A stretch of DNA of 64,000 bases, taken from positions 4,287-68,286 of the IMG/VR virus record IMGVR_UViG_3300021961_000076, one strand, 5' to 3'. Made by a program: the position numbers and the translations under genes. The DNA comes from a virus. How positions within the stretch are numbered: the stretch's first letter is position 1; each line of letters begins with the position of its first letter. Positions 677-15,502 of the stretch are shown here, piece after piece. Below the pieces are notes generated by a model. It was not told the origin of the DNA, made no database searches, and saw only the letters and a program-made list of their open reading frames with translations.

Positions 677-3019
677 TTAGTGACCATCTCTCCAGTTTCT
701 AGAAATTTCAGGAGGTGCTTTAAGAGTTACTCCTTCAAGCTTAGTTGTGTTCTCCATAATCTCTTTAATAATAGGAGCTACAAACTCTGCCTGATCTTCT
801 GGTACGTTAATGATTAACTGGTCATGGACTTGAGCTTGAACACGGCCGTCGATCCCAAGCTCCTTCAGCTTGCGATTGATCTGTACTGCTGCCCGGTTTA
901 CGACAGCCGCTGCAAGGCTCTGCAGTTGATAGTTCAAACAGTTGTTAAGTCCATTTCGGTAGTCACGGTACCATTGCAGTACTTGATCTTTACCGTAACG
1001 TTCTGATAGATCTTTTCTAAACTTCCAGTCCATAATCTGTTCACCAAAAGTATCGTACATCTTCTTTACTTTAGGTAGGTGACGGATACGTCCTACTTTA
1101 TTTGTAATAAAGCCATGTTCCTTAACTTGCTTACGAGAGTTTAATCTCCATTGCTTAAGTTGAGGGAAGCCATTTAGATAACCTTCTACAAGTACCTCTG
1201 CTTCTTTTTGAGATATACCTAGAGTCATTCCTAGAGCATAAGCCTCCATGCCGTATGCAATTCCTAACGAATAGGCCTTAGCCTGATTACGTTTAACAGG
1301 GTCTAACTTTTTTAGGTAGTTAGGAGCTTTCTTATCTGGGGATACTCCGTCAGGGTATTTATCACGCTGCTCATCAAGCTTCTCAGTCTGAATAGCTACA
1401 GTAGAGTAGAAGTCCCATCCGTTATTAAAGATCTCTTGAAGCTTAACATCACCTGATACTGAGGCAAAGCAGTGAGGTTCTAATGATTCGTAGTCGGCAT
1501 CGATGATCTTACGTCCTTCACCTGCAGTTAAGAAGGCACGAACGATGTTAGTATACTTAACGATAATAGGAGCATCTTCACCATCTTCTTTAGGCTTAGG
1601 TAGCTGCTGGGCATCTGAACCGTAGCGTCCGGAAACAGTACCGTTCTGCTTGAAGTAGAAGTAGTAACGACCATCTTCGTGATTATCTACAAAGCGATCA
1701 ATATAAGTAGACTTAATCTTTAGAAGCTTATTATAGATGCGTAAGTTCTCAGCCCATTCATAGTCCTTAGAGAGCTCTTCGATCATATCCATATCGAACT
1801 TATCTCGACCGGACTTAGTATTAGCTCCTGATACTAGAGGTTTAATGCCCATGTAGTCAAATACTAGCTCACCTAAGTGCTTCTTAGATTGAATGTTAAT
1901 ATACTCACCATCATTCTTCTCCTTCCATAAAGCCATAGAGATTTTTAGTACCTCCATCTCATTAAGGAGATCTAATTTACCTGTGAGTAAAAACTCTCTA
2001 ACAGGTGAATCTTCTAATTCAGCCAGAGTCTTTTGGGTAATAGAGTATTTACCGGTCTTGTCAGATTTAGGCAGAGATAAAGAATATCTCATAGCTAATG
2101 TCTGTGCCCATGTACCTTTATTAGAAGGTGGGAACTCTTTTAGAGCAGTGTCTACAACCCATTCTTTACCTGCAGCTAATGCTAGGATAGAATCAAGAAC
2201 GATCTTTTTATTCTTCTGAAGGTCTTCAATGATCTCTTCTTTAGTCTGCTCTAAGAGCTCTAAGTCTAAATCTACTCCCATCTCTTCCATAGGAATAGTC
2301 ACCTCACGGTATAAAGGCATTACTTCGTCTTCAAAGAAGAACTTTTCTAGATTCTCTACTTTTAACTTATCTAGAAAATATGTACAGACACGAAGGGTTA
2401 AGTCGGTATCGGCAGCAGCATACTTAGAAAGTATATCCATGTCTGCTTTGTAGATCTCAAAGCTCTCTTTAGTCACTGAGCCTCCATTACGTTTGATAGA
2501 TTCTTTCAGTTCGATCTGCTCTTCGTTAGCAGCCTTCTCTACATCTAAACCAATATGTTCCTGGATAGAGATAGCTAAAGGTTTAAGACCGAACACTCCC
2601 ATACCTGCTCCTTCTTCCTGAACAGTATGAACTAGTAGAGCGGTATCAACCCAGAGACTATCAAGTAAGTTAATTCCGTAGAAGTTCTTAGTAAATCGGC
2701 AGTCGAATGATGCGTTGTGCATCACAAGCTTCTTACCGATTAACATACTTAAAATCTTCTTAGCAATAGCATGACATCCAATACCTTCGATAGTAAGTTC
2801 ATCTAAGGATTCATTCTCATGACTCCAAGCCATCGTCGGCATATAGAATCCGATACCAATGTCACCTGATACAGAGAAACCAACTATCTGTCCTTTTCTC
2901 ATATTCAAGCTATCAGTCTCGGTATCGTATGCAATTACGTTCGATTCCTGAATATGTTGGATAAGTAGGTTAACAGTTTCCTTATCTGTAACCGTGTAGT
3001 ATTTTTTTTCAATTGTCAT
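677..3019 (-). CDS. polA: DNA polymerase family A (3'-5' exonuclease plus polymerase)
   Basis: Exo motifs YDTET, HNASFD, YAAAD; GTVSGRY; motif A DADYESLE; motif B RNQAKAYSLGIAYG; motif C QVHDQL. Confidence 0.95.
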   Translation of the reverse strand: MTIEKKYYTVTDKETVNLLIQHIQESNVIAYDTETDSLNMRKGQIVGFSVSGDIGIGFYMPTMAWSHENESLDELTIEGIGCHAIAKKILSMLIGKKLVMHNASFDCRFTKNFYGINLLDSLWVDTALLVHTVQEEGAGMGVFGLKPLAISIQEHIGLDVEKAANEEQIELKESIKRNGGSVTKESFEIYKADMDILSKYAAADTDLTLRVCTYFLDKLKVENLEKFFFEDEVMPLYREVTIPMEEMGVDLDLELLEQTKEEIIEDLQKNKKIVLDSILALAAGKEWVVDTALKEFPPSNKGTWAQTLAMRYSLSLPKSDKTGKYSITQKTLAELEDSPVREFLLTGKLDLLNEMEVLKISMALWKEKNDGEYINIQSKKHLGELVFDYMGIKPLVSGANTKSGRDKFDMDMIEELSKDYEWAENLRIYNKLLKIKSTYIDRFVDNHEDGRYYFYFKQNGTVSGRYGSDAQQLPKPKEDGEDAPIIVKYTNIVRAFLTAGEGRKIIDADYESLEPHCFASVSGDVKLQEIFNNGWDFYSTVAIQTEKLDEQRDKYPDGVSPDKKAPNYLKKLDPVKRNQAKAYSLGIAYGMEAYALGMTLGISQKEAEVLVEGYLNGFPQLKQWRLNSRKQVKEHGFITNKVGRIRHLPKVKKMYDTFGEQIMDWKFRKDLSERYGKDQVLQWYRDYRNGLNNCLNYQLQSLAAAVVNRAAVQINRKLKELGIDGRVQAQVHDQLIINVPEDQAEFVAPIIKEIMENTTKLEGVTLKAPPEISRNWRDGH

Positions 3020-3636: not shown

Positions 3637-4551
3637 TTATTGACGTAAAGTTTTCTTCATTCTTTTTCCCGAATCAGAAAACCACCCTGGGATCATTTCT
3701 TTATGAGTTGCTCGGATAGGATTAATGTCGAGTCCTCCACGACGTGTATATAGACATGCTACCATAAGCTTTTCTGGCTCGTAGGCTTGCATGAGATGAG
3801 TAAAGACCATCTCACAGATCTCTTCGTGGAAGTGAGATACTTGACGGTGACTAACAATATACTTAGCTAATGAAGTAAGCTTGATAGTCTTCTTACCTTC
3901 CATATGGATATAAACATCACCCCAGTCTGGTTGGTTGGTTACTCGGCAGTTACTACGTAGAAGATTAGAATGAACCTTTGTAGTAACTGAAAAAGGAAGG
4001 TCTCCTCCTACCTCTAACTGAGAAGCGTCTGAATGGAAAGCTGTAAATTCTAGCTCGTCTAGGTTAACACTTGCTGCTAGATCGGCAAAGCCATCAAAAG
4101 CATACTCTGCTCCATAATCGTTACCAAAGAACGTACAAGCAACAAAACCTCCTAGCAGTTCAGTAAGATCAGCAGATACTGTCTTTTCAATCTGCTTGAT
4201 ACATTCCTTAGCTGTTTCGCCCATTGGAGTCATATTCAAAGAGTTTAGATACAATTTGATTGACTTAGACTCAACGTGATACTCTGAATCAGCAGGACAT
4301 ACAATCTTAAGCATACCTGCTACAGGTTGTCCTTTCTTAGTGATGGCTGATACTTCATAAGCGTTCCAGCTATCTACTCCTACGAAAGGTAAGTTACCTT
4401 CTTCAATGCCGTAAGCTTCTCTGTTTAAATAACGAGGTACTGCTACTAGCAACTCTGGGTCGTAGATAGCTTTGTAGCCTTCTCCTCCTACTTTACCGAG
4501 GTGCTTATTCGCAATCTCGACAACAGCATTGTAGTTTTTTACTTCTTCCAT
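3637..4551 (-). CDS. queF: NADPH-dependent preQ0 reductase, long bimodular form
   Basis: ESKSIKLYLNS QueF motif; catalytic SNCRVTNQPDWG; FHEE; YTRRGGLDINP. Confidence 0.93.
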   Translation of the reverse strand: MEEVKNYNAVVEIANKHLGKVGGEGYKAIYDPELLVAVPRYLNREAYGIEEGNLPFVGVDSWNAYEVSAITKKGQPVAGMLKIVCPADSEYHVESKSIKLYLNSLNMTPMGETAKECIKQIEKTVSADLTELLGGFVACTFFGNDYGAEYAFDGFADLAASVNLDELEFTAFHSDASQLEVGGDLPFSVTTKVHSNLLRSNCRVTNQPDWGDVYIHMEGKKTIKLTSLAKYIVSHRQVSHFHEEICEMVFTHLMQAYEPEKLMVACLYTRRGGLDINPIRATHKEMIPGWFSDSGKRMKKTLRQ

Positions 4552-4552
4552 T

Positions 4553-5086
4553 TTATTTGATATAGTTTAAAATTTGATCTACTCGCTGCAATGGGGAGCC
4601 AGTAACAGTTAAATAATGACGGTCAGTTAAATCGAGTTGCCATTGAAACTCTTCATCAATAATCCTTCTCCAAGCTTCATCGATACTACGCTGACCATCG
4701 TCCACAGCATCGAATTCAATCGGAAAGTAAATATAATGCGTATACTCCTCCTGTACTCGCTTCCAAGTATCTTCAATAAAGTCTAAGCCTTGTTGAGATA
4801 AAGCAGGCATATGCTTTGAATATACAACTAGATCTAGATAACAACGATCTAGAATTATACTATGAGGTCTTAGTAGAGCCTCTAAGTGAAAAGAAGAGAT
4901 AGCTAACTGAGTCTCAGTAGTACCTGCTTCATTGATAGGAAAGCCAAACTTAGCAACCGTACGAGTACTCTCGTTAACAAATTGCCATTGTTGAAAACCC
5001 CTTGTAGGAAGTTTAGATTTTAGTAATTCATACACAGTAGTCTTGCCAGTACTACTAGCTCCTACTAATGCAACTCGTCTAACCAT
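4553..5086 (-). CDS. P-loop nucleotide kinase-like protein (AAA_28/dNMP kinase-like)
   Basis: N-terminal Walker A GASSTGKTT, ILDRCYLD motif, DDGQR lid. Confidence 0.75.
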   Translation of the reverse strand: MVRRVALVGASSTGKTTVYELLKSKLPTRGFQQWQFVNESTRTVAKFGFPINEAGTTETQLAISSFHLEALLRPHSIILDRCYLDLVVYSKHMPALSQQGLDFIEDTWKRVQEEYTHYIYFPIEFDAVDDGQRSIDEAWRRIIDEEFQWQLDLTDRHYLTVTGSPLQRVDQILNYIK

Positions 5087-5622
5087 AACTTATTATGTAA
5101 AAATTCACCCCACATCTCTACTGATGTGTCATGTAATATACGAAAGATATCCTTCTTAGGCAACTGTCCGTGTATGCTTTCTCTTTCCATTAACACTTCT
5201 CCTTCGTCTACTCCGGCAGTTACTTTATGAATCACACACCCAGCACTTCTATAATTACCTTCCCAAGCTCTATACTGAGGATCTTTACCTTTAAGCTCAG
5301 GGTACTTAGTTATAAGGCCTGGATGTCCGTTATATGTCTCATACTGCTTACAGACGCTCTCAGGTACAACTCTTAGCCAGCCATGCAAAGTTACGATAGG
5401 ATTTTCATATCCCATCAACAGCCAATGGTACTCATGCTCTTCAGGCTTATTTTCAGTCCAGTGAAGTAAATGAGTAGGAATATCTTGATTGATAGTTCTT
5501 AGATGAGAAGGTCGATGATTAGTAATAATCTTATTAGGCCAGCGACCTAAGATCTTACTTACCTCAACAATCTCAGATCCTGTCTGACTAAAGAATGCTA
5601 TCCACGGACGTATTGCTACCAT
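5065..5622 (-). CDS. dpdN: PurN-like formyltransferase, probable preQ1 formyltransferase (DpdN)
   Basis: NGHPGL...YPELKG, GCVIHKVTAGVDEG formyltransferase motifs; lies next to queF and the dpdA-like gene; start placed at MVAIRPW (5622). Confidence 0.8.
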   Translation of the reverse strand: MVAIRPWIAFFSQTGSEIVEVSKILGRWPNKIITNHRPSHLRTINQDIPTHLLHWTENKPEEHEYHWLLMGYENPIVTLHGWLRVVPESVCKQYETYNGHPGLITKYPELKGKDPQYRAWEGNYRSAGCVIHKVTAGVDEGEVLMERESIHGQLPKKDIFRILHDTSVEMWGEFLHNKLWLDELH

Positions 5623-6415
5623 GTGCGAACCATCTAAAACGTTGAACATTATAAATTGCCTGGGTGAGTTCCTCGCTAGTAGGAACCATATTGATCATCT
5701 CAAATAACTTAATAGAAGCTTTGTCCCATAAGCCTTGATCTGTATACGGAATATTTAGTAAGCCGTGTACTACCGGGTTAGAAGTATCTAAAGAGTAGAT
5801 CCAATCGTAATCTTTATAGAAAGCAAACTCCTGAGGAAGTCCACATCCTAGTAAGTGGTGAGGAATATCTGTGTTGATAACTCCGTCACGTAGCATCTTT
5901 CCTAATAGCATTACTCTTCCTAGCATCCAGCTAACATACTTATTAGGATGCGGTACCATCTGTTCGTAGAGACTGTAATCGAAAGAGATAGCCACCATAT
6001 CTACTTCAGCTATAGTAGTCATCCATTCGTAACAAGTAACTATCTCAGAGTAAGTCTTTCCCTGTACTACACCTATCTTCTTACTGGGTGCTGCTAAAGC
6101 GTTTGCATACTTAAAGTTCCACTCAGCCATATTGTGCATAGTACGCTTAGCATTCTCTAAAGAGTCAGGTACGATATACCAAGTAGGCTTTAGGTAGTCA
6201 ATCCAGAAAGCAAAACGATCAGAATCAAAAGCTTCTCCTAATTCAAAGATAGAGTTATCTAAAATAATCTCTCGTCCTTTATCTCGAGCTTCTATAAACT
6301 TATCTAAATACTTTTCATTCTCTTCAAAGAGATGTACTAAGGCATAATCATAGTCCGTATACTGCTGAATAGTATCAAAGCTAGCTATCGGGCTTTCGTG
6401 TGCAATCTTAACCAT
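5588..6415 (-). CDS. dpdA: TGT-fold deazaguanine transglycosylase (DpdA3-like)
   Basis: ILDNSIFE, IVPD, VVQG, HLLG and SLDTS motifs in TGT/DpdA order; no Zn-binding C-terminal domain; sits inside the Que cluster. Confidence 0.8.
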   Translation of the reverse strand: MVKIAHESPIASFDTIQQYTDYDYALVHLFEENEKYLDKFIEARDKGREIILDNSIFELGEAFDSDRFAFWIDYLKPTWYIVPDSLENAKRTMHNMAEWNFKYANALAAPSKKIGVVQGKTYSEIVTCYEWMTTIAEVDMVAISFDYSLYEQMVPHPNKYVSWMLGRVMLLGKMLRDGVINTDIPHHLLGCGLPQEFAFYKDYDWIYSLDTSNPVVHGLLNIPYTDQGLWDKASIKLFEMINMVPTSEELTQAIYNVQRFRWFAHGSNTSVDSIL

Positions 6416-6605
6416 TTATATTTCCTAAGTCGTTAAATACTTTATTCAATTCAGACATCTGTATCTGTAGTTTATCTAAATTCTCTTCAAGTTCTTTTGC
6501 AGATTTCATAGATAGAGCTTGATCAACTACCTCTAAAGGTACTACCCAACGCTCTAGATCTTCTAAATAAATCTTATGTTCTTCTACTAACTTCTTTGGG
6601 TCCAT
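6408..6605 (-). CDS. Hypothetical protein (helical)
   Basis: 65-aa ORF tightly packed in the operon. Confidence 0.6.
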   Translation of the reverse strand: MDPKKLVEEHKIYLEDLERWVVPLEVVDQALSMKSAKELEENLDKLQIQMSELNKVFNDLGNING

Positions 6606-6607
6606 TA

Positions 6608-7108
6608 TTACTTAGAGTTTTTTAGCTCTTCTTCAGTAAAGAACTGTTTAAGATTAGGTGCGAAGTAATTAATGGACTTCATAACTTTATCATCTGCCTT
6701 GCGGTAAACTACATAACGGTTACCTACCTTACGAAAATAACAATCGCCGTGTTCTTTTTCTCGTTTCTCTATAGTGTCCATTGCTTCTTGTAGAGTAGCA
6801 CAACTCTTAGACATATTCGAGGCCTGAACTTCTTTATAAGCAGGTATTAATTTATCTTTGAGTCCAAATACCATTGTAGCATTACCTACAGCTACGTAAA
6901 GTAGATCGCAGATAGCGTCTAGTACCTCTACGATATCTTTCTCTTCGATAGCGTGAGCTAGTTCGTCTGTCTCTTCCTTAATAAAGTTAACGACAAAGTC
7001 AGTTAGCTTTTTATCATTAGGAATGATAGGAGTATAGTTATTCGGCTTACCGAACGTCTTGTTGAATACTTCTACTTCATCAACAAATTTTACTCGTACT
7101 TTTTTCAT
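6608..7108 (-). CDS. All-alpha NTP pyrophosphohydrolase (MazG/PRA-PH-like), candidate dGTPase
   Basis: EETDEL...EVLDAICDLLYV and EVQASNMSK motifs. Confidence 0.85.
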   Translation of the reverse strand: MKKVRVKFVDEVEVFNKTFGKPNNYTPIIPNDKKLTDFVVNFIKEETDELAHAIEEKDIVEVLDAICDLLYVAVGNATMVFGLKDKLIPAYKEVQASNMSKSCATLQEAMDTIEKREKEHGDCYFRKVGNRYVVYRKADDKVMKSINYFAPNLKQFFTEEELKNSK

Positions 7109-7815
7109 TTACAAGAATAACCTTTTACAAATTCATAAAATTCTGCTCGTGCTGAGTCTTCTTCCATAAAGCTCTTAGATAGCTTAGATGTCTTCATAGA
7201 AGCTCCTGCATGCTTAGTACCTCGACAAGATACACAGTTGTGGGTTGCTTCTACCATTACAGCTACTCCTACATTACCCTCACACACAGTATCGACTGCG
7301 TTGTGGATAGCTACAGTAAGCTGCTCTTGAATAGCGCCTCTACGGCCAAAGTGCTCTACAATACGATTGAGCTTAGATAGACCGATTACCTTACCTCCAG
7401 GACCTGGAATGTAAGCGATATGTACTCGACCTTGAATGGTCTGGTGGTGGTGAGAACACATAGAGGTTAAAGGAATATTACCTTCGAATACAATACCGTC
7501 ATAACCATCAGCAGGGAAGGCCGTGATCTCAGGCATAGGATTGAAACGTCCTGCCCATAAGTCATTCACATACGCCTTAGCCACTCGACGAGGAGTATCT
7601 GATGAGTTAGGATCATTACGCCAATCACATCCTAGAGCATCTAGGAATTCACCAAATGCCTTAGCAGCATTCTCAATGATATTAAACCTCTCCTGGTCTG
7701 TTAAGTTCATAGAGGTCATAGAGTGAACTCGGAACTTCTCTGCTAGTTGAGCGGAGATACCATTAGCGAACCCGGCTTGAGCGAGTTCTACATCATAACG
7801 TTTCTTTTCTGCCAT
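7105..7815 (-). CDS. folE: GTP cyclohydrolase I
   Basis: TPRRVAK, SMCSHH, GLSKLNRIV, IQEQLT, HNCVSCRG. Confidence 0.96.
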   Translation of the reverse strand: MAEKKRYDVELAQAGFANGISAQLAEKFRVHSMTSMNLTDQERFNIIENAAKAFGEFLDALGCDWRNDPNSSDTPRRVAKAYVNDLWAGRFNPMPEITAFPADGYDGIVFEGNIPLTSMCSHHHQTIQGRVHIAYIPGPGGKVIGLSKLNRIVEHFGRRGAIQEQLTVAIHNAVDTVCEGNVGVAVMVEATHNCVSCRGTKHAGASMKTSKLSKSFMEEDSARAEFYEFVKGYSCK

Positions 7816-7818
7816 ATA

Positions 7819-7849
7819 ATTTGTTTTTTGAGGTGGTGCTTCGACACCT
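7819..7849 (-). ncRNA. preQ1-I riboswitch-like aptamer in the folE leader
   Basis: AGGUG-UCGAAGCAC-CACCU-CAAAAAACAAAU: 5-bp P1, loop starting UCG and ending in C, A-rich tail with a C; close to the T. tengcongensis class I aptamer; ends a few nt before the ATG. Confidence 0.7.
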
Positions 7850-7854
7850 TTTTA

Positions 7855-7885
7855 TAATATACGAAAACTATTTCAGAGTGCAAAC
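7855..7885 (-). promoter_or_regulatory. Early-type promoter for the folE unit
   Basis: Minus strand GTTTG-N-TTTTCGTATATTA immediately upstream of the aptamer. Confidence 0.65.
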
Positions 7886-8379
7886 ACATCTCTGTAATTT
7901 CTTGCATAACCTTTCTCATTATCCATTCCAAAGCCTATTACCCATTCATCATCAATAGTAAATGCATGGTATGATTTCTGTTTAGGGATAGGTGAGGTTG
8001 CTCTAATAAGCAAGCTAACAATCGAGATAGAGGCTGGATGTTTAACTTCTAGGTATTCAATTACTGCTTTCATAGTATTACCTGTATCGTAGATATCATC
8101 TACCAGATATACGTGCTTACCTTTGATAGGAGTTTCCAGATCTTTCATAATCTGAATATCTCCTTGCTTCTTTTTACCTACATAAGATTTCACTCTCATA
8201 AAGTCACACTCTACATCAATAGGCATGCTCCTAACTAGATCTGCATAGAACATAAATGCTCCGTTTAACAAACCTACCATAACTACTGGTGTTTTATCTC
8301 CTCTGTGATCATCGGCAATCTGTTTACCGATAATTTTAGTTCGGATATCAATATCCTTAGCGTTCAATAACAGTTGCAT
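7873..8379 (-). CDS. hpt: Hypoxanthine/guanine phosphoribosyltransferase
   Basis: GLLNGAFMFYADL, VKSY, PRPP loop LVDDIYDTGNT, WVIGFGMD...RN. Confidence 0.9.
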   Translation of the reverse strand: MQLLLNAKDIDIRTKIIGKQIADDHRGDKTPVVMVGLLNGAFMFYADLVRSMPIDVECDFMRVKSYVGKKKQGDIQIMKDLETPIKGKHVYLVDDIYDTGNTMKAVIEYLEVKHPASISIVSLLIRATSPIPKQKSYHAFTIDDEWVIGFGMDNEKGYARNYRDVFAL

Positions 8380-8388
8380 ATTTTGGTT

Positions 8389-9213
8389 TTAAAAATCGTA
8401 GTTAGCACCTAATGTAATAAAGTATGGGATCTCTTTTATATAACCTAGCTCTATATCCGAAACGTCATAATCAAGTGCGCTTCTTAGTTTAGTTGCAAAG
8501 GAGAATGTATCTGTAACTTTATAACCTATTGATACTCCGTAGTACAGATTCATATTAAAATCATTCCAGTACCATAAATCAATCTCATTTACCGCATCTT
8601 CATATAAGGTAAAGTAATGTGTTCGGATATCAGTTAGTAGGAATACTTCTGGTCTTAGTATCCAATGGTTTAACTCCCACTCTTTCATTCCAATCAACAT
8701 TAGACTGTAAGTTTGATTTACAGCTGCATCATAGAATTCACCACCTAATTCAAAATCATCCCAGCTATAATCATTCACAAATAAAGTATATCCAATCTTT
8801 GTCGAATTTTTTTCATACATCTGGTTAAAGTATGGGGATATAGTTAGAGCATCTGGCGTATATCCAGAATTAGATAGGGTAATTGAGTAGTTATTGGTTC
8901 TCTTTAGCCCGCTGCTAAACTCTTTAACTCTGCCGTAGTTGTATCCAACTTTACCGTATTTGAATGATGGGGTATATGAATAAAAGATTCCATTTGTATG
9001 CTTTCCACTTTCCCACTCATATGCTAAGTTGAAACTAAATATAGTAAACTCACCTAAATAACCTAATGTTATATTTGAACTACTGATGATGTCGTTGTTC
9101 AGTTCAACATAAGTTACACTAGTCAGTTCTGAGTTAGCTTCTGCTCCTTCGTTAGATTGGCCAAACACCCACCCAAAGTGTAGCAGTAGTATAAGTGTTA
9201 GTATTCTTTTCAT
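8389..9213 (-). CDS. Putative outer-membrane beta-barrel protein
   Basis: Sec signal peptide, alternating aromatic beta-strands, C-terminal beta-signal-like YFITLGANYDF. Confidence 0.65.
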   Translation of the reverse strand: MKRILTLILLLHFGWVFGQSNEGAEANSELTSVTYVELNNDIISSSNITLGYLGEFTIFSFNLAYEWESGKHTNGIFYSYTPSFKYGKVGYNYGRVKEFSSGLKRTNNYSITLSNSGYTPDALTISPYFNQMYEKNSTKIGYTLFVNDYSWDDFELGGEFYDAAVNQTYSLMLIGMKEWELNHWILRPEVFLLTDIRTHYFTLYEDAVNEIDLWYWNDFNMNLYYGVSIGYKVTDTFSFATKLRSALDYDVSDIELGYIKEIPYFITLGANYDF

Positions 9214-9216
9214 TTA

Positions 9217-9462
9217 TCAATTCATTCCACCACCTCTACCTTCGTCTTGAGTTGGTTGTGATTCTGCTTTTTGTTCTTTCTCTTGTTGTTTTACCTTTGC
9301 ATTTTCAGCTGCCTTTACTTTGGTAGTGTTTAAGGATTCTACCTTTTGAGTTTCCTTATCAGTTCTCTGAACCGATTGGGCTGGATCACCGCTAATAGGA
9401 ACTGTCACCGTACAAGCGGATAAGGTAAGTATTATTGTAGGTATAATCCAGAACTTTCTCAT
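9217..9462 (-). CDS. Small lipoprotein
   Basis: Basic N-terminus, hydrophobic stretch, lipobox LSAC; low-complexity charged tail. Confidence 0.7.
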   Translation of the reverse strand: MRKFWIIPTIILTLSACTVTVPISGDPAQSVQRTDKETQKVESLNTTKVKAAENAKVKQQEKEQKAESQPTQDEGRGGGMN

Positions 9463-10622
9463 TGAATAAGTACTTTTTCTACTCTACCGTTATTATATCT
9501 GATTACATATAATCCTTTAAGTTCGGCCCAATTTATATTTTCTCCCATATAACGACCGTTCCAATCATATACTTTGTATTGCGTATTGAAATCTGCAATA
9601 TTTTCTTCAATTCCAATTGTTGAGTTTACAATCAGAGTAACAAAGTAGTCGTTATTAGAAGAGTTACTGGAAGCTCTTAATACTCCTTTATATGTACCTA
9701 CCTGCAGGTCTGTTAAGTTCCAGGTTGTATTTGAAGCTTGAGTAACATTAACTCCTGGGAAGGTCAAGCTAGTAGAGGTGTAGTTGTTAATTAATACACT
9801 AACGTATAGCGAATCTCCATTAAGCAGGTCTTGAGTAAAAGCAACTGGAGGTACTGGTACGTTAGGAGTAGATCCTGGTTGAGTAATGTATACTTGCTGA
9901 ATTCTATTTACTCCGATCAAGCTTCCGTTTCTATACTCGCTAATTTTATACCCGGTAGCAAATTGACCATTAGTAGTTGGACCCCAAGTAATAGCTCCGT
10001 TTGCGTCTACATAGTATGTACCGTAATTACCTAGTTGAGAGAAAGGAGCTAAGGGTACAAACACTCCATTTGCATACTGATTAAGAGCGTCATCTTTTTC
10101 TACCATTACAGAATCTCCATCAGGATCTACTGCAAAAAGAATTGATGTAGCTGTATCACCAGTAACCCAGTTGATAGGAAGAGGATTTACAATGATAGGA
10201 GCCGAGTTAGGTACTGAGGATTTCTTATAATCTAATCCCATAGTAAAGCTGCTATTCATAGATGAAGCAGCGTTAGTGTGAATACCTCTACAACAGTTTG
10301 TATAAACGTATCGATAATCGCCTGCTGTTAATACTCGGTAGCCGGAATAGATTGCTACGTTAACTCCTTGCCAGGTTGAAGTAACTTGTTGAGTTAAACT
10401 CACTGTAGTATTCTGTTGATAGAACCCATTAGTAAGTTTGTACTCAGTTAAGGTTAGAGAAGTAGGTCCGCTGATACCTTGAGGGTCAGTAAACAGAGTA
10501 ACTGTAATATCTACAGTATCAGAGTATCCGCGCTGGATAGCTTGAGTATATCCTCCTAAGAGGTGTGATGCACTTAGGTTAAATCCTAATGCAAGGGTGA
10601 GTAAGGTTAGTAGTTTTTTCAT
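9459..10622 (-). CDS. Secreted beta-rich protein with a T9SS type-A-like C-terminal sorting domain
   Basis: Signal peptide, then SHLLGG and NCCR motifs seen in Bacteroidota surface proteins; NSAP/DPDGD repeat; C-terminus YKVYDWNGR...KGLYVIR...KVLIQ. Confidence 0.65.
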   Translation of the reverse strand: MKKLLTLLTLALGFNLSASHLLGGYTQAIQRGYSDTVDITVTLFTDPQGISGPTSLTLTEYKLTNGFYQQNTTVSLTQQVTSTWQGVNVAIYSGYRVLTAGDYRYVYTNCCRGIHTNAASSMNSSFTMGLDYKKSSVPNSAPIIVNPLPINWVTGDTATSILFAVDPDGDSVMVEKDDALNQYANGVFVPLAPFSQLGNYGTYYVDANGAITWGPTTNGQFATGYKISEYRNGSLIGVNRIQQVYITQPGSTPNVPVPPVAFTQDLLNGDSLYVSVLINNYTSTSLTFPGVNVTQASNTTWNLTDLQVGTYKGVLRASSNSSNNDYFVTLIVNSTIGIEENIADFNTQYKVYDWNGRYMGENINWAELKGLYVIRYNNGRVEKVLIQ

Positions 10623-12642: not shown

Positions 12643-12818
12643 ACTCGTACTCCGTAACGAAATTCGTGCTTCTCATTTTCTTTTTCTGCTCCTATACCGT
12701 CTAAGGTTAGGTAGCCTAGCTCATACCCGTAGGCACTTAAAGCAGAGATGACTCCTGCTGGGTCAACTACTTTTAAAGCCCAGAGCTGATGTAGGTTTTG
12801 TAAAAATCCGTGTGGCAT
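12639..12818 (-). CDS. Hypothetical 59-aa protein (missing from the ORF track)
   Basis: MPHGFLQNLH...EFRYGVRV*; TAATG coupling with the queE stop and ATGA overlap with the next gene. Confidence 0.6.
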   Translation of the reverse strand: MPHGFLQNLHQLWALKVVDPAGVISALSAYGYELGYLTLDGIGAEKENEKHEFRYGVRV

Positions 12819-13600
12819 TATACTTCGCGTTTAGTGTCAAAGGCAATGATGTGTTCACGGCCTGTAAAATTATAATAGTTATCAGTACACCATTGTATTA
12901 CCATTGGGTAAACTCTGATGAGTTCTTCTCTGTTATCTCCAGGAGGCATAATCCAGATCTTATCTTTAGGTACTTCTAACTCGTCCATGAAGGCACGAAT
13001 CTCATCCCAGGTGTCAGGCATCTCTACCGGATTAACAACCACCTTCATATGGTAGTCTGAATGGTAAGTCATAGACTGCTTGATAGACTCTTTGTTAAGC
13101 CTAAAGCGGTTATGGGTATCAATAAAACGCTGATCTACAACAGACCCAAGAGGCGTAACTGCACCAAGTACAGGAACAGAATTGCTGAACTTAGGACTGA
13201 AGCTAATAAGACCAATAGGGTAATCTGTTTCCAGAAAGGCCGATCCTTCAGTCTCGATAGTAATAACAATACCCCTTTCATTAGCAAAATGTGTTAATTC
13301 ATTTACAATAGCTGGGTGCATGGTAGGTGAACCTCCTGTTAGCATCATCTCCTTAATCTCAGGATGTGCATCATAAATGTCTACGATGTCCTGAAATGAG
13401 TATTTACCTTTCTCTGGGTGAATACTTGTGTACCAGCTATCACACCATCCTCCTTCTCCGAAGTAACAGCGGTGAGTACAGCCTGTAGTACGTACAGCAA
13501 CAGTAGGTCTACCGGCACGGCTACCTTCTGATTGTACGCATGTGTAAAGTTCTACGATAGGTAGAGTCTTACTATAGTCTTCAATTCTCTTAAGCGGCAT
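12818..13600 (-). CDS. queE: 7-carboxy-7-deazaguanine synthase (radical SAM)
   Basis: ELYTCVQSEG..AG.PTV.VR, GCTHRC-x7-CD, LTGGSP, IETEG, SPK; start placed at MPLKR. Confidence 0.92.
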   Translation of the reverse strand: MPLKRIEDYSKTLPIVELYTCVQSEGSRAGRPTVAVRTTGCTHRCYFGEGGWCDSWYTSIHPEKGKYSFQDIVDIYDAHPEIKEMMLTGGSPTMHPAIVNELTHFANERGIVITIETEGSAFLETDYPIGLISFSPKFSNSVPVLGAVTPLGSVVDQRFIDTHNRFRLNKESIKQSMTYHSDYHMKVVVNPVEMPDTWDEIRAFMDELEVPKDKIWIMPPGDNREELIRVYPMVIQWCTDNYYNFTGREHIIAFDTKREV

Positions 13601-14048
13601 AGATTGCTGAGTTTTTGTGGTTTTCCATAAATTTAACTTTAACAACCTTTACGCGACCTTCAGTCTCTAGTTGTACGAAATCGTTTAGCTTGTGGTAAAG
13701 ATATTCTGCAAATTTCTCTGCACCTACTGCCGGTATTACTCTTAATTGAATAATACCTCTAGCGTCTAAATCTACAAAGTCTGACATAGCAGGGTCGTCT
13801 TCTGATACTACGACAGTATGATCAAACATATACTCCATCCACTCTTTAGGTTGACGTCCTTCAATAAGGTTATTAGCACGCTTCATACCTCCGAAGTCCC
13901 ATACCCAGTTTCGATGATCTAAGTCACCTTCAAACGTTACTTCAAACTCTACGTCGTAACCGTGAAGATACTGACAGTGAGTCGTATTTGCTCTCCATTG
14001 ACGGAAGCAAGTACTAAATCCGTCAAACTTCTTTCTACTCTTATACAT
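13590..14048 (-). CDS. queD: 6-carboxy-tetrahydropterin synthase
   Basis: HCQYLHGY, WVWDFG, FDHT, GAEKFA; start placed at MYKSRK. Confidence 0.9.
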   Translation of the reverse strand: MYKSRKKFDGFSTCFRQWRANTTHCQYLHGYDVEFEVTFEGDLDHRNWVWDFGGMKRANNLIEGRQPKEWMEYMFDHTVVVSEDDPAMSDFVDLDARGIIQLRVIPAVGAEKFAEYLYHKLNDFVQLETEGRVKVVKVKFMENHKNSAIYAA

Positions 14049-14304
14049 CTTCTGTAAAGTTTTTATATTGTTCAATATAATGATTTAAAGGCTTAGCTCC
14101 AACTGTACGAGCAAACTCTTTTCCGGACTCGTCTACCAGTACGACTGTTGGTACACTACGGACAGTATATTCCATTGTTAGGAGCTCTTCAGTATCGATA
14201 TTAATCTTCTCTACTGCAATTCCTTGCTCTTTTACTTTCTCCATTGTTGGACCTAACATTCGGCAAGGTCCGCACCAAGGGGCGCTAAAATACAAATACT
14301 TCAT
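14041..14304 (-). CDS. trxA: Thioredoxin
   Basis: WCGPC active site and VRSVPT cis-Pro loop. Confidence 0.93.
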   Translation of the reverse strand: MKYLYFSAPWCGPCRMLGPTMEKVKEQGIAVEKINIDTEELLTMEYTVRSVPTVVLVDESGKEFARTVGAKPLNHYIEQYKNFTEDV

Positions 14305-14576
14305 ACTAATTCTTCTATAATTCCAATTACTTCACTTATAACTAATACAGCAACAGCTGCAGGAATATTTACCAGCAGCAAAAAGTAGCCTCCAATTCGG
14401 ATACCGGATTTAATAAATGAGATGATCTGATGCCATTTTTGATCAGGCATCTTATTGAAGTTTTTAAACTCCTTTGAATACTTAATCTCTTTACCTTTAA
14501 TCTTGTTATAAAGGTCAGGATTAATGATACTGTCTTTAGGGAGGACAGGCTCCGTCAATAACTGTTTTTTTGCCAT
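14301..14576 (-). CDS. Hypothetical membrane protein, first gene after the second aptamer
   Basis: Hydrophobic C-terminal half (IISFIKSGIRIGGYFLLL...IGIIEELV). Confidence 0.65.
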   Translation of the reverse strand: MAKKQLLTEPVLPKDSIINPDLYNKIKGKEIKYSKEFKNFNKMPDQKWHQIISFIKSGIRIGGYFLLLVNIPAAVAVLVISEVIGIIEELV

Positions 14577-14578
14577 AA

Positions 14579-14609
14579 TTGTGTTTTTAAAGTGGTGCTA
14601 CGACACTAT
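14579..14609 (-). ncRNA. Second preQ1-I riboswitch-like aptamer
   Basis: AGUG-UCGUAGCAC-CACU-UUAAAAACACAAU; loop matches the folE copy at 8 of 9 nt while the stem differs but still pairs; ends just before the ATG. Confidence 0.65.
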
Positions 14610-14611
14610 AC

Positions 14612-14651
14612 TAATATAAGAATAAATAGGGAGGGAGACAAGCTCCCCCCT
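14612..14651 (-). promoter_or_regulatory. Early-type promoter overlapping a GC-rich terminator-like hairpin after queC
   Basis: Minus strand GGGGGAG-CTTGT-CTCCCTC...TTCTTATATTAG. Confidence 0.55.
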
Positions 14652-14653
14652 AA

Positions 14654-15502
14654 TTAATTTGCGTGTGCTGCTAAAACTTTTTCAACATGCTCACGTGCTA
14701 CCTCCCAGCTTACCGGGCCGGTCTCATCAGCGTACGCTACAGGGTCAGGTCGTCCTAGCTTAATAAAAGCTTCAATACGCTCTACTGAAGAGGCTGATTT
14801 GTAGTCTGAGTACCAAGTCCAGGCATTAGTCTCTGGACGGTGATAGTACTTGATTGGTTTGTAAGAGGTGTTAGTACGCTTATAAACTTCATCAAAGTCT
14901 ATTCCTAGCTTCTCACACAATACCAATCCGTCTTCTAGAATAGTAAACTTATCACCTTCCAAATAAGGAGTCCAATAAGATACCCGATCGCTATCCCAGT
15001 TACCCACTCTAAAGGCGTGATCGTCTGCGTCACGGAACTCTTGACGGCAGTCCGGATAGATTGCATGGTCTCCTGCATGGATACCAAGAGCGATTGAAGT
15101 TTCTTCCTGAGTTTCATTTGCAATAGAAAGTGCTATAGCTTGTGTAATAGAGCTGAAGATTTTGTTTCGGTTCGGTACAACAGTAGCTTTCATATTCTCT
15201 TCTGCGTAATGACCTTCAGGTACTTCAGCACCACCTGTTACTAGAGCCGAGTTGAGCAGATCAACTAAACCATCGAGCTTAATAACTCGGTAGTTTACTT
15301 TACATCCACCGTAACAATCATTCTCGTCACAGTTGCGATTTAGATAATCAACCAATGATTGAGCTCTTTCAAGTTCTACTCTGTGCTTTTGACCGTAGTC
15401 AAATGATACTGCGGTTACAGTATCGAATTCATTTAATGCTTTTAAAAGCAAAGTAGAGGAGTCCATCCCTCCTGAAAGACTAACAACAACGTGTTTTGCC
15501 AT
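14654..15502 (-). CDS. queC: 7-cyano-7-deazaguanine synthase (variant lacking the Zn-binding Cys)
   Basis: SGGMDS, FDYGQKH..E, VVPNRN, GDHAIYPDCR; Zn-cysteine positions read TSY...DYKSASSVER. Confidence 0.93.
   Translation of the reverse strand: MAKHVVVSLSGGMDSSTLLLKALNEFDTVTAVSFDYGQKHRVELERAQSLVDYLNRNCDENDCYGGCKVNYRVIKLDGLVDLLNSALVTGGAEVPEGHYAEENMKATVVPNRNKIFSSITQAIALSIANETQEETSIALGIHAGDHAIYPDCRQEFRDADDHAFRVGNWDSDRVSYWTPYLEGDKFTILEDGLVLCEKLGIDFDEVYKRTNTSYKPIKYYHRPETNAWTWYSDYKSASSVERIEAFIKLGRPDPVAYADETGPVSWEVAREHVEKVLAAHAN

Follow-up and report, generated by a model that had tools for sequence, protein, structure and literature searches.

The preQ1 class I (preQ1-I) riboswitches, of which McCown et al. 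in 2014 reportedly defined types 1-3, are the described RNAs that the element analyzed here most resembles. Their ligand pocket, as outlined in the portion of a recent review devoted to it (PMC11625349), is made of a specificity cytosine immediately before the P1 3' strand, whose own 5' neighbor is A in types II and III and U in type I, of a uridine (L1) directly following the P1 5' strand, which reads the ligand N9, and of an adenine of the A-rich L3, with the G of the G-C pair closing P1 as the floor. For the T. tengcongensis aptamer, that same portion describes a C.G-C triple above the ligand, and the relevant parts of another paper (PMC10622847) give G.A and A contacts and a C9-G33 pair. 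The latter paper also reports that a class I construct minus one P1 base pair still bound preQ1 (ca. 52 nM). In the T. tengcongensis template printed in PMC10639078, P1 has 5 bp and the 10-nt loop starts with UCGCAG. Riboswitches are rarely found in phage genomes, and a survey from 2017 names, in the sections covering phages, only c-di-GMP-I and glutamine riboswitches and no preQ1 class (PMC5473149). On the host side, the mRNAs of Bacteroidia are described in excerpts of PMC6847099 as being without a Shine-Dalgarno (SD) sequence, their initiation being tuned by mRNA structure and by the upstream nucleotides. Finally, the phage immuto_2-6A carries formyl-dPreQ1 in place of all dG, according to the available part of a preprint (bioRxiv 10.1101/2023.04.13.536721).

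The window, i.e., the whole stretch of DNA analyzed here, comprises 64,000 nt (positions 4,287 to 68,286 of the IMG/VR virus record IMGVR_UViG_3300021961_000076). Exactly two copies of a small hairpin motif are present in this 68-kb genome, each heading one 7-deazaguanine operon (Table 1). A first-pass annotation, made from the letters of the sequence, had placed an aptamer copy at 14579-14609, just before an ATG; the element is there, with coordinates offset by 2 to 5 nt. That its loop matches the folE copy at 8/9 positions, and that the outer stems differ and still pair, could be confirmed from the sequence. Both stems have 4 bp, to which copy 1 may add a fifth, an A-T pair (A7849-T7831), and in the ungapped alignment of the two copies the outermost pair goes from A-T to G-C. 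The position claimed for it, after a promoter -7 element, fits the sequence as well, with a TTG or TTTG found in both copies 19 to 20 nt upstream of a TAnnTT-type element. The promoter consensus of Bacteroidota is TTTG / TAnnTTTG. At copy 2, the promoter scan listed TTGTCT-17-TATATT (9/12), and this promoter-like element would put the RNA 5' end at, or just 5' of, P1.

Table 1. Coordinates of the two motif copies, their surroundings, and the bacterial copies (window positions unless a locus is named).
Feature	Position	Strand	Remarks
Copy 2, whole element	14607..14580	-	AGTG, tcgtagcac, CACT, then ttaaaaaCA; 3 nt 5' of the ORF91 start codon
Copy 2, hairpin	14591..14607	-	AGTG 14607..14604, 9-nt loop tcgtagcac 14603..14595, CACT 14594..14591; P1 covariation
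Copy 2, A-rich tail ttaaaaa (L3-like)	14590..14584	-	From sequence; A-run then CA conserved
Copy 2, caca (candidate P2 3' strand)	14583..14580	-	Followed by att, then ORF91 ATG 14576..14574
Promoter-like -7/-10 element tatattag	14611..14618	-	tat spacer to P1; TTG 14641..14639, 20 nt upstream
Terminator-like hairpin and T-rich run	14630..14650	-	Directly 3' of the queC stop codon (14654)
queC	14654..15502	-	Upstream of copy 2; without a motif copy of its own
Unit headed by copy 2	12818..14576	-	ORF91, thioredoxin, QueD, QueE
ORF91	14576..14301	-	No Pfam family
Thioredoxin	14304..14041	-	
QueD/PTPS	14075..13590	-	
QueE radical SAM	13645..12818	-	
Copy 1, whole element	7848..7820	-	GGTG, tcgaagcac, CACC, then tcaaaaaaCA; 5' of folE
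Copy 1, hairpin	7832..7848	-	GGTG 7848..7845, loop tcgaagcac 7844..7836, CACC 7835..7832
Copy 1, tail tcaaaaaa then caaa	7820..7831	-	Followed by ttat, then folE ATG 7815..7813
Promoter-like element tatattat	7854..7861	-	TTTG 7884..7881, 19 nt upstream; aaaaa between element and P1
Unit headed by copy 1	3637..7815	-	FolE, MazG-like, orf65, DpdA-like, formyltransferase, AAA_28, QueF
FolE	7815..7105	-	
MazG-like	7108..6608	-	
DpdA-like, 275 aa	6415..5588	-	No Pfam match; name taken from its homologue in phage immuto_2-6A, which is annotated as DpdA
Formyltransferase	5649..5065	-	
AAA_28 kinase-like	5086..4553	-	
QueF	4551..3637	-	
Bacterial CCTG/CAGG-stem copies	L280:1029-1064; L323:3525-3560; L381:5446-5481	+; -; -	Loci L410-L439, L440, L448-L452

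Around copy 2 the minus strand carries all the genes. The terminator-like hairpin sits between queC and the ORF91 unit, separating them, and three overlapping terminator-like sites are found here against 0.4 expected. The unit headed by copy 2 runs on through small ORFs, a ferredoxin, ThyX and an Endonuclease_NS (non-specific endonuclease) to ca. 10619; homologues of ORF91 in Atlas belong only to viral hypothetical clusters. The region at 3637-8379 (minus strand) contains an HPRT-like phosphoribosyltransferase, a MazG-like pyrophosphohydrolase and an AAA_28/thymidylate-kinase-like protein alongside the DpdA-like, formyltransferase and QueF genes, a set with which the modified base could be made by a nucleotide-level route. 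These last three genes are common to the window phage and immuto_2-6A; by analogy with the latter, the window phage probably makes the same base (formyl-dPreQ1). Between both units (8389-10622, minus strand), three ORFs of 274, 81 and 387 aa have N-terminal hydrophobic leaders and, by eye, look like secreted or outer-membrane proteins of host type.

The significance of the two copies derives from a shared 15-mer, from their structure and from their position, and not from the 9-nt loop, which is by itself not rarer than chance (9 matches at ≤1 mismatch versus 10.8 expected). Apart from the two exact occurrences of the 15-mer, GTGTCGWAGCACCAC, no site in the entire 68,286-nt genome comes closer to it than 3 mismatches. 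The first-pass annotation, too, took two such copies as speaking against chance. It had also proposed a covariance-model scan of the genome and of related contigs. The model (R1) was built from 66 distinct instances (alignment A1), with both window copies in the training set, and, so trained, scored copy 2 at 56.4 bits and copy 1 at 41.4 bits, the next site in the genome reaching 12.2 bits.

Across related viral contigs, the P1 stem appears as AGTG/CACT, GGTG/CACC, GGAG/CTCC, TGAG/CTCA or TGTG/CACA, with two near-invariant parts, the loop TCGNAGMAC (T-C-G-N-A-G-C/A-A-C) and a tail consisting of an A-run and then CA. We scanned IMG/VR with a pattern in which loop and tail were fixed and both stem arms left free. 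Among the 86 distinct instances recovered, 57 had at least 4 consecutive closing pairs (exactly 4 in 56 of them) and 29 had 3 or fewer; the split is bimodal, and by simple arithmetic [(6/16)^4] 4 pairs would be expected by chance in about 2/86. Alignment A1 was pre-selected for pairing and is therefore 100% paired by construction, but this does not apply to its pair types, which are, for the four pairs in turn, AU41/GC12/UA8/CG5, GC61/CG5, UA56/AU10 and GC66. Leaders of FolE homologues, gathered by protein similarity only, contain the motif with GGTG/CACC, GGAG/CTCC and AGTG/CACT stems, and RNAalifold on alignment A2 (FolE-derived leaders) predicts P1 too, with compensatory changes at 2/4 pairs. 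Two different stems are often found within one contig, e.g., AGTG and TGAG in L091, L113, L118, L046 and L251. All the stem variants are Watson-Crick, G-U pairs being absent, so that pair types alone cannot exclude a symmetric DNA site, and the independent events are few, with no more than about six types of stem and with close relatives contributing many of the instances. The A-run followed by CA is conserved also in the instances retrieved with a pattern that leaves the tail unspecified, and in all real instances P1 is followed by an A-run that is 4 to 8 nt long.

In the viral contigs, nearly all copies of the motif stand at the two 7-deazaguanine operon heads. We examined 69 distinct stem-plus-tail instances in viral loci: 38 are directly 5' of ORF91, QueD or QueE and 24 directly 5' of FolE, which places 62/69 at pathway heads. 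One more precedes a 197-aa ORF with ORF91 next, two precede the same 197-aa ORF at truncated loci, two are at contig ends, and two (L011 and L208) are spurious by their sequence. An equal occurrence before unrelated genes, named by the first-pass annotation as the outcome that would speak against its reading, is not what we found. In 478 kb from 80 FolE loci, R1 gave 21 matches at E ≤ 0.01, all of them on the strand of the gene and ending at the folE start codon, and no match at this threshold in the remaining 59 loci. One of the latter, L155, has at 2952-3000 (+) a variant FolE leader, with a loop ending in UUC (as in preQ1-I type I, it is "UC" that precedes the P1 3' strand) and the tail taataaaaacggag. 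Each of three related contigs carries exactly two copies. The gene order 3' of the motif in the copy 1 unit is also that of relatives and of phage immuto_2-6A; Cellulophaga phage phiST has no copy of the motif. In the closest relatives (L096:263-298, L025:2607-2642 and L051:1094-1129), the copy of the ORF91 unit has the loop tcggagcac and a tail ending in cacc, i.e., G at N4 and C at tail +3, and stands before an additional ORF of 197 aa, whose start resembles a signal peptide and which lies 5' of ORF91. The site L453:8965-9000 (NC_055915.1, 32361-32396) represents a ready experimental system.

The motif is also found in bacteria, which were scanned using one genome per species. With a CCTG/CAGG stem and the same loop and tail, it heads queC-queD-queE in Thalassospira, where the downstream gene is QueC by Pfam (1e-60). 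R1 detected exactly one copy in each of 37/37 genomes of the Thalassospira family, and a copy 5' of queD-queE in 6/41 sampled Vibrionaceae; RF00522, the Rfam preQ1-I model, misses the bacterial copies too. The loop tcgtagcac and the tail ttaaaaaca of copy 2 are found in identical form at the heads of these ordinary bacterial queC operons. In five of the six Vibrionaceae leaders (L440 and L449-L452), a conserved segment, GTGCTGCATTG, lies ca. 60 to 100 nt 3' of the aptamer, with complementarity to the loop of the latter (GTAGCAC) as well as to the CAATGCA just 5' of the start codon; the minimum free energy (MFE) folds of these five leaders include the loop pairing in four. By its complementarity, the segment looks like an alternative pairing of the expression-platform kind, which might switch in either direction. 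In the putative host family (Flavobacteriaceae), R1 found no copy in 151 genomes, with few candidates scored, and the pattern gave 5 matches in 401 genomes versus 8 for the backwards control, which is not above background. One of 41 sampled genomes of this family has an RF00522 match, a canonical preQ1-I type I element (50 bits) at L455:1501-1545 (-), located 1 nt 5' of a Vut_1/YhhQ-type transporter gene; it is a class I switch in an SD-less lineage.

MFE folding does not favor P1 (z = +0.43 for copy 2). Its preferred register-shifted hairpin (GUGU/GCAC in copy 2 and GGUGU/GCACC in copy 1) was rejected as a conserved feature because the pairing is lost in the GGAG/TGAG-stem class with a loop ending in aac. 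A longer-range pairing of the 5' half of the copy 2 aptamer with the start-codon region, seen in a 66-nt fold, was also discarded, being no better than in shuffled sequences. As for the candidate pseudoknot stem P2, its loop G and tail C are invariant and hence give no covariation signal either way. The additional pair proposed between loop N4 and tail +3 is weakly positive (57/75, with a shuffle mean of 51.5 and 57 reached in 54/2000 shuffles), and an A at N4, present in the folE copy of the window, breaks it. In metatranscriptomes, small shares of the region were recovered in six runs; in four of them these were short assembled contigs, mostly 90 to 99% alike, that are blind to transcript starts and strand. 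One RNA library (run X15) contains a 221-nt contig (depth 3.9) that covers window positions 14581-14732, from the 3' end of queC over the terminator-like hairpin to the aptamer. Its origin is a close relative (2 letters differ, with a 2-nt gap in addition), and it reflects either read-through transcription or DNA in the library.

Taking together its sequence and the analogy with described switches, we consider it likely that the element is a preQ1/preQ0 riboswitch, compact and similar to type II, by which translation is repressed in an SD-less host. It would be a minimal class I aptamer, closest to type II, located at the mRNA 5' end and made of a 4-bp P1, a 9-nt loop, an A-rich strand of ca. 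7 nt and C-A-N-N. Going by the solved class I structures, the ligand would be a free 7-deazaguanine base (most likely preQ1, possibly preQ0) that stacks on the G-C floor, pairs with the last C of the loop and is read by the U that opens the loop and by the A that ends the A-run, and a pairing of the loop G with the tail C would close an H-type pseudoknot. The start codon lies 5 to 13 nt 3' of the tail C in the viral instances, which leaves no room for a terminator. With the start codon so close to the tail C, and with no SD in Bacteroidia, folding is expected to bury the A-rich, normally unstructured initiation region and to reduce the translation of ORF91 and folE, the genes with which the two operons begin. 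The outcome would be a feedback on the phage's own supply of 7-deazaguanine for the replacement of G in its DNA. The OFF direction, and a control of translation rather than of stability, are what we infer from this arrangement. The small riboswitch regulon proposed by the first-pass annotation is supported by the stem covariation, the two operon heads, the association with que genes in two proteobacterial families and the class I contact positions, the nature of the ligand being deduced.

A broader proposal seems to us equally likely to prove right or wrong. It holds that these elements are a fourth and smallest preQ1-I type (ca. 28 nt, 4-bp P1, 9-nt loop, invisible to Rfam), common to the que operons of the Thalassospira family and Vibrionaceae and to a large set of phages of Bacteroidota. 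On the phage side, a riboswitch would for the first time be known to preside over DNA hypermodification (whole-genome replacement of G by a preQ1 derivative), and this one would act on translation without an SD by folding the A-rich initiation region into the aptamer.

The same fold could have another ligand, such as preQ0, CDG, formyl-preQ1 or a nucleotide form, which we regard as unlikely. It would agree with the QueF, formyltransferase, HPRT-like phosphoribosyltransferase and kinase-like AAA_28 protein encoded by the phage, with the replacement of all dG by formyl-dPreQ1 that the accessible text of the preprint reports for the cultured relative (bioRxiv 10.1101/2023.04.13.536721), and with an L2 one nucleotide shorter than that of the T. 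tengcongensis aptamer. However, the same loop and tail stand at ordinary queC and queD-queE operons in the Thalassospira family and Vibrionaceae, with the specificity C, L1 U, L3 A and G-C floor kept as they are and no residue change indicating a new ligand. The suggestion of the first-pass annotation that loop and tail may have been retuned to preQ0, formyl-preQ1 or a nucleotide therefore finds no support, an identical loop and tail preceding ordinary queC operons. A protein-binding site, whether for a translational repressor on the RNA hairpin or for a dimeric regulator on a DNA inverted repeat, strikes us as quite improbable. The stem arms do form an inverted repeat, all of whose variants are Watson-Crick, a pattern that a co-evolving symmetric operator would keep, and the element overlaps the promoter-proximal region. 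Yet conservation resides in the asymmetric loop and tail instead of the arms, two arm sequences coexist within single phage genomes, and the orientation relative to the gene is constant; moreover, no shared regulator is known for the Bacteroidota phages, Alphaproteobacteria and Gammaproteobacteria in which loop and tail precede que genes.

We give even less credit to a ligand-independent 5' feature, i.e., an mRNA-stabilizing hairpin, a processing site or a phage-specific promoter or initiation signal. Its appeal is that the element lies at the predicted transcript 5' end and that the stem is thermodynamically weak, the fold of copy 2 not being favored over shuffled sequences. Nevertheless, only 2 of the many gene heads in the genome carry the element, in phages and bacteria alike it stays within one pathway, and a stabilizer or promoter would not need an invariant 9-nt loop and an A-run matching a known ligand pocket. 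Chance, or a simple duplication of leaders without function, is hardly credible: the 9-mer loop alone is not rare, but the loop is fixed and the stem covaries over dozens of contigs in three bacterial or phage lineages.

A search of the literature retrieved no report linking a riboswitch to phage 7-deazaguanine DNA modification, and the word riboswitch is absent from the portion of the phage-modification preprint available to us (bioRxiv 10.1101/2023.04.13.536721); such sequences may already be contained in the type 2 alignment of McCown et al. 2014. A binding of preQ1 by these RNAs would mean that phages meter a base that they need in genome-scale amounts, and that the class I pocket works in a scaffold smaller than those of the known types. 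They would also provide a natural test case for riboswitch control of translation in bacteria that ignore the Shine-Dalgarno sequence, SD-independent control being presented as an open challenge in the pertinent passages of a recent review (PMC11625349). The motif further exposes a blind spot of RF00522, behind which leaders of bacterial que operons are hidden.

At the gathering threshold of RF00522 (39 bits) there were no matches in the window, and a genome-wide search with this model gave only an unrelated site (13.8 bits). Stretches of 161 and 41 nt around either copy had no PreQ1 match in Rfam at E ≤ 10, and with preQ1-II, preQ1-III, THF-II (folE motif) and the other Rfam 15 families we obtained only chance-level matches to unrelated families. 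Given that RF00522 failed to detect it at any threshold tried, the element was filed as a variant and not as a recognized member. Every named class I ligand-contact position has, judged by sequence, a counterpart in the phage element. The closing pair is G-C in 66/66 instances of A1 (pre-selected for pairing) and in 21/21 of A2; the T right after the P1 5' strand is invariant in A1 and A2; and the loop ends in AC in both copies and without exception in A1 and A2, though the search patterns required the C.

Among the known types, the resemblance is greatest with type II. Like the T. tengcongensis and B. subtilis representatives, the phage element has a G-C-closed hairpin with U after the P1 5' strand and AC before the P1 3' strand, its loop start (UCGNAG) matches the UCGCAG of T. 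tengcongensis at 5/6 positions, an A-rich tail is followed by C-A, and the element is located 5' of genes of 7-deazaguanine/queuosine biosynthesis and, as in the translational switch of T. tengcongensis, just 5' of the start codon. In contrast to type II, P1 has 4 bp instead of 5 and the loop 9 nt instead of 10 (T. tengcongensis) or more; L2 (3 nt versus 4) and L3 (ca. 7 nt) are also shorter than in T. tengcongensis. There is no Shine-Dalgarno sequence to sequester, and the genes under its putative control are those of phage DNA modification and not of tRNA queuosine. With type III (E. coli yhhQ leader), it would share the small size, the AC at the specificity position and the translational control. 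However, the pertinent sections of PMC11625349 and PMC10622847 describe for that type a pyrimidine-rich loop, UU after P1, three conserved P1 G-C pairs and full pairing to an AAGG SD, whereas the loop of the phage element is purine-rich (G, A, G; tcgNagMac), P1 is followed by UC and there is no SD, and membership in type III was rejected on these three counts. The type I switch of the putative host family (L455) has in common with it the setting in an SD-less phylum, the A-rich tail and a start codon a few nucleotides downstream, and differs by its 6-bp P1, its 12-nt loop starting with UU and ending with UC, and its tail ending in CUAAG. Finally, the c-di-GMP-I riboswitches of C. difficile prophages and the glutamine aptamers of cyanophages, as presented in the corresponding part of the 2017 survey (PMC5473149), are phage-borne metabolite-sensing leaders, as this element would also be; unlike them, it would govern the phage's own pathway of DNA hypermodification.
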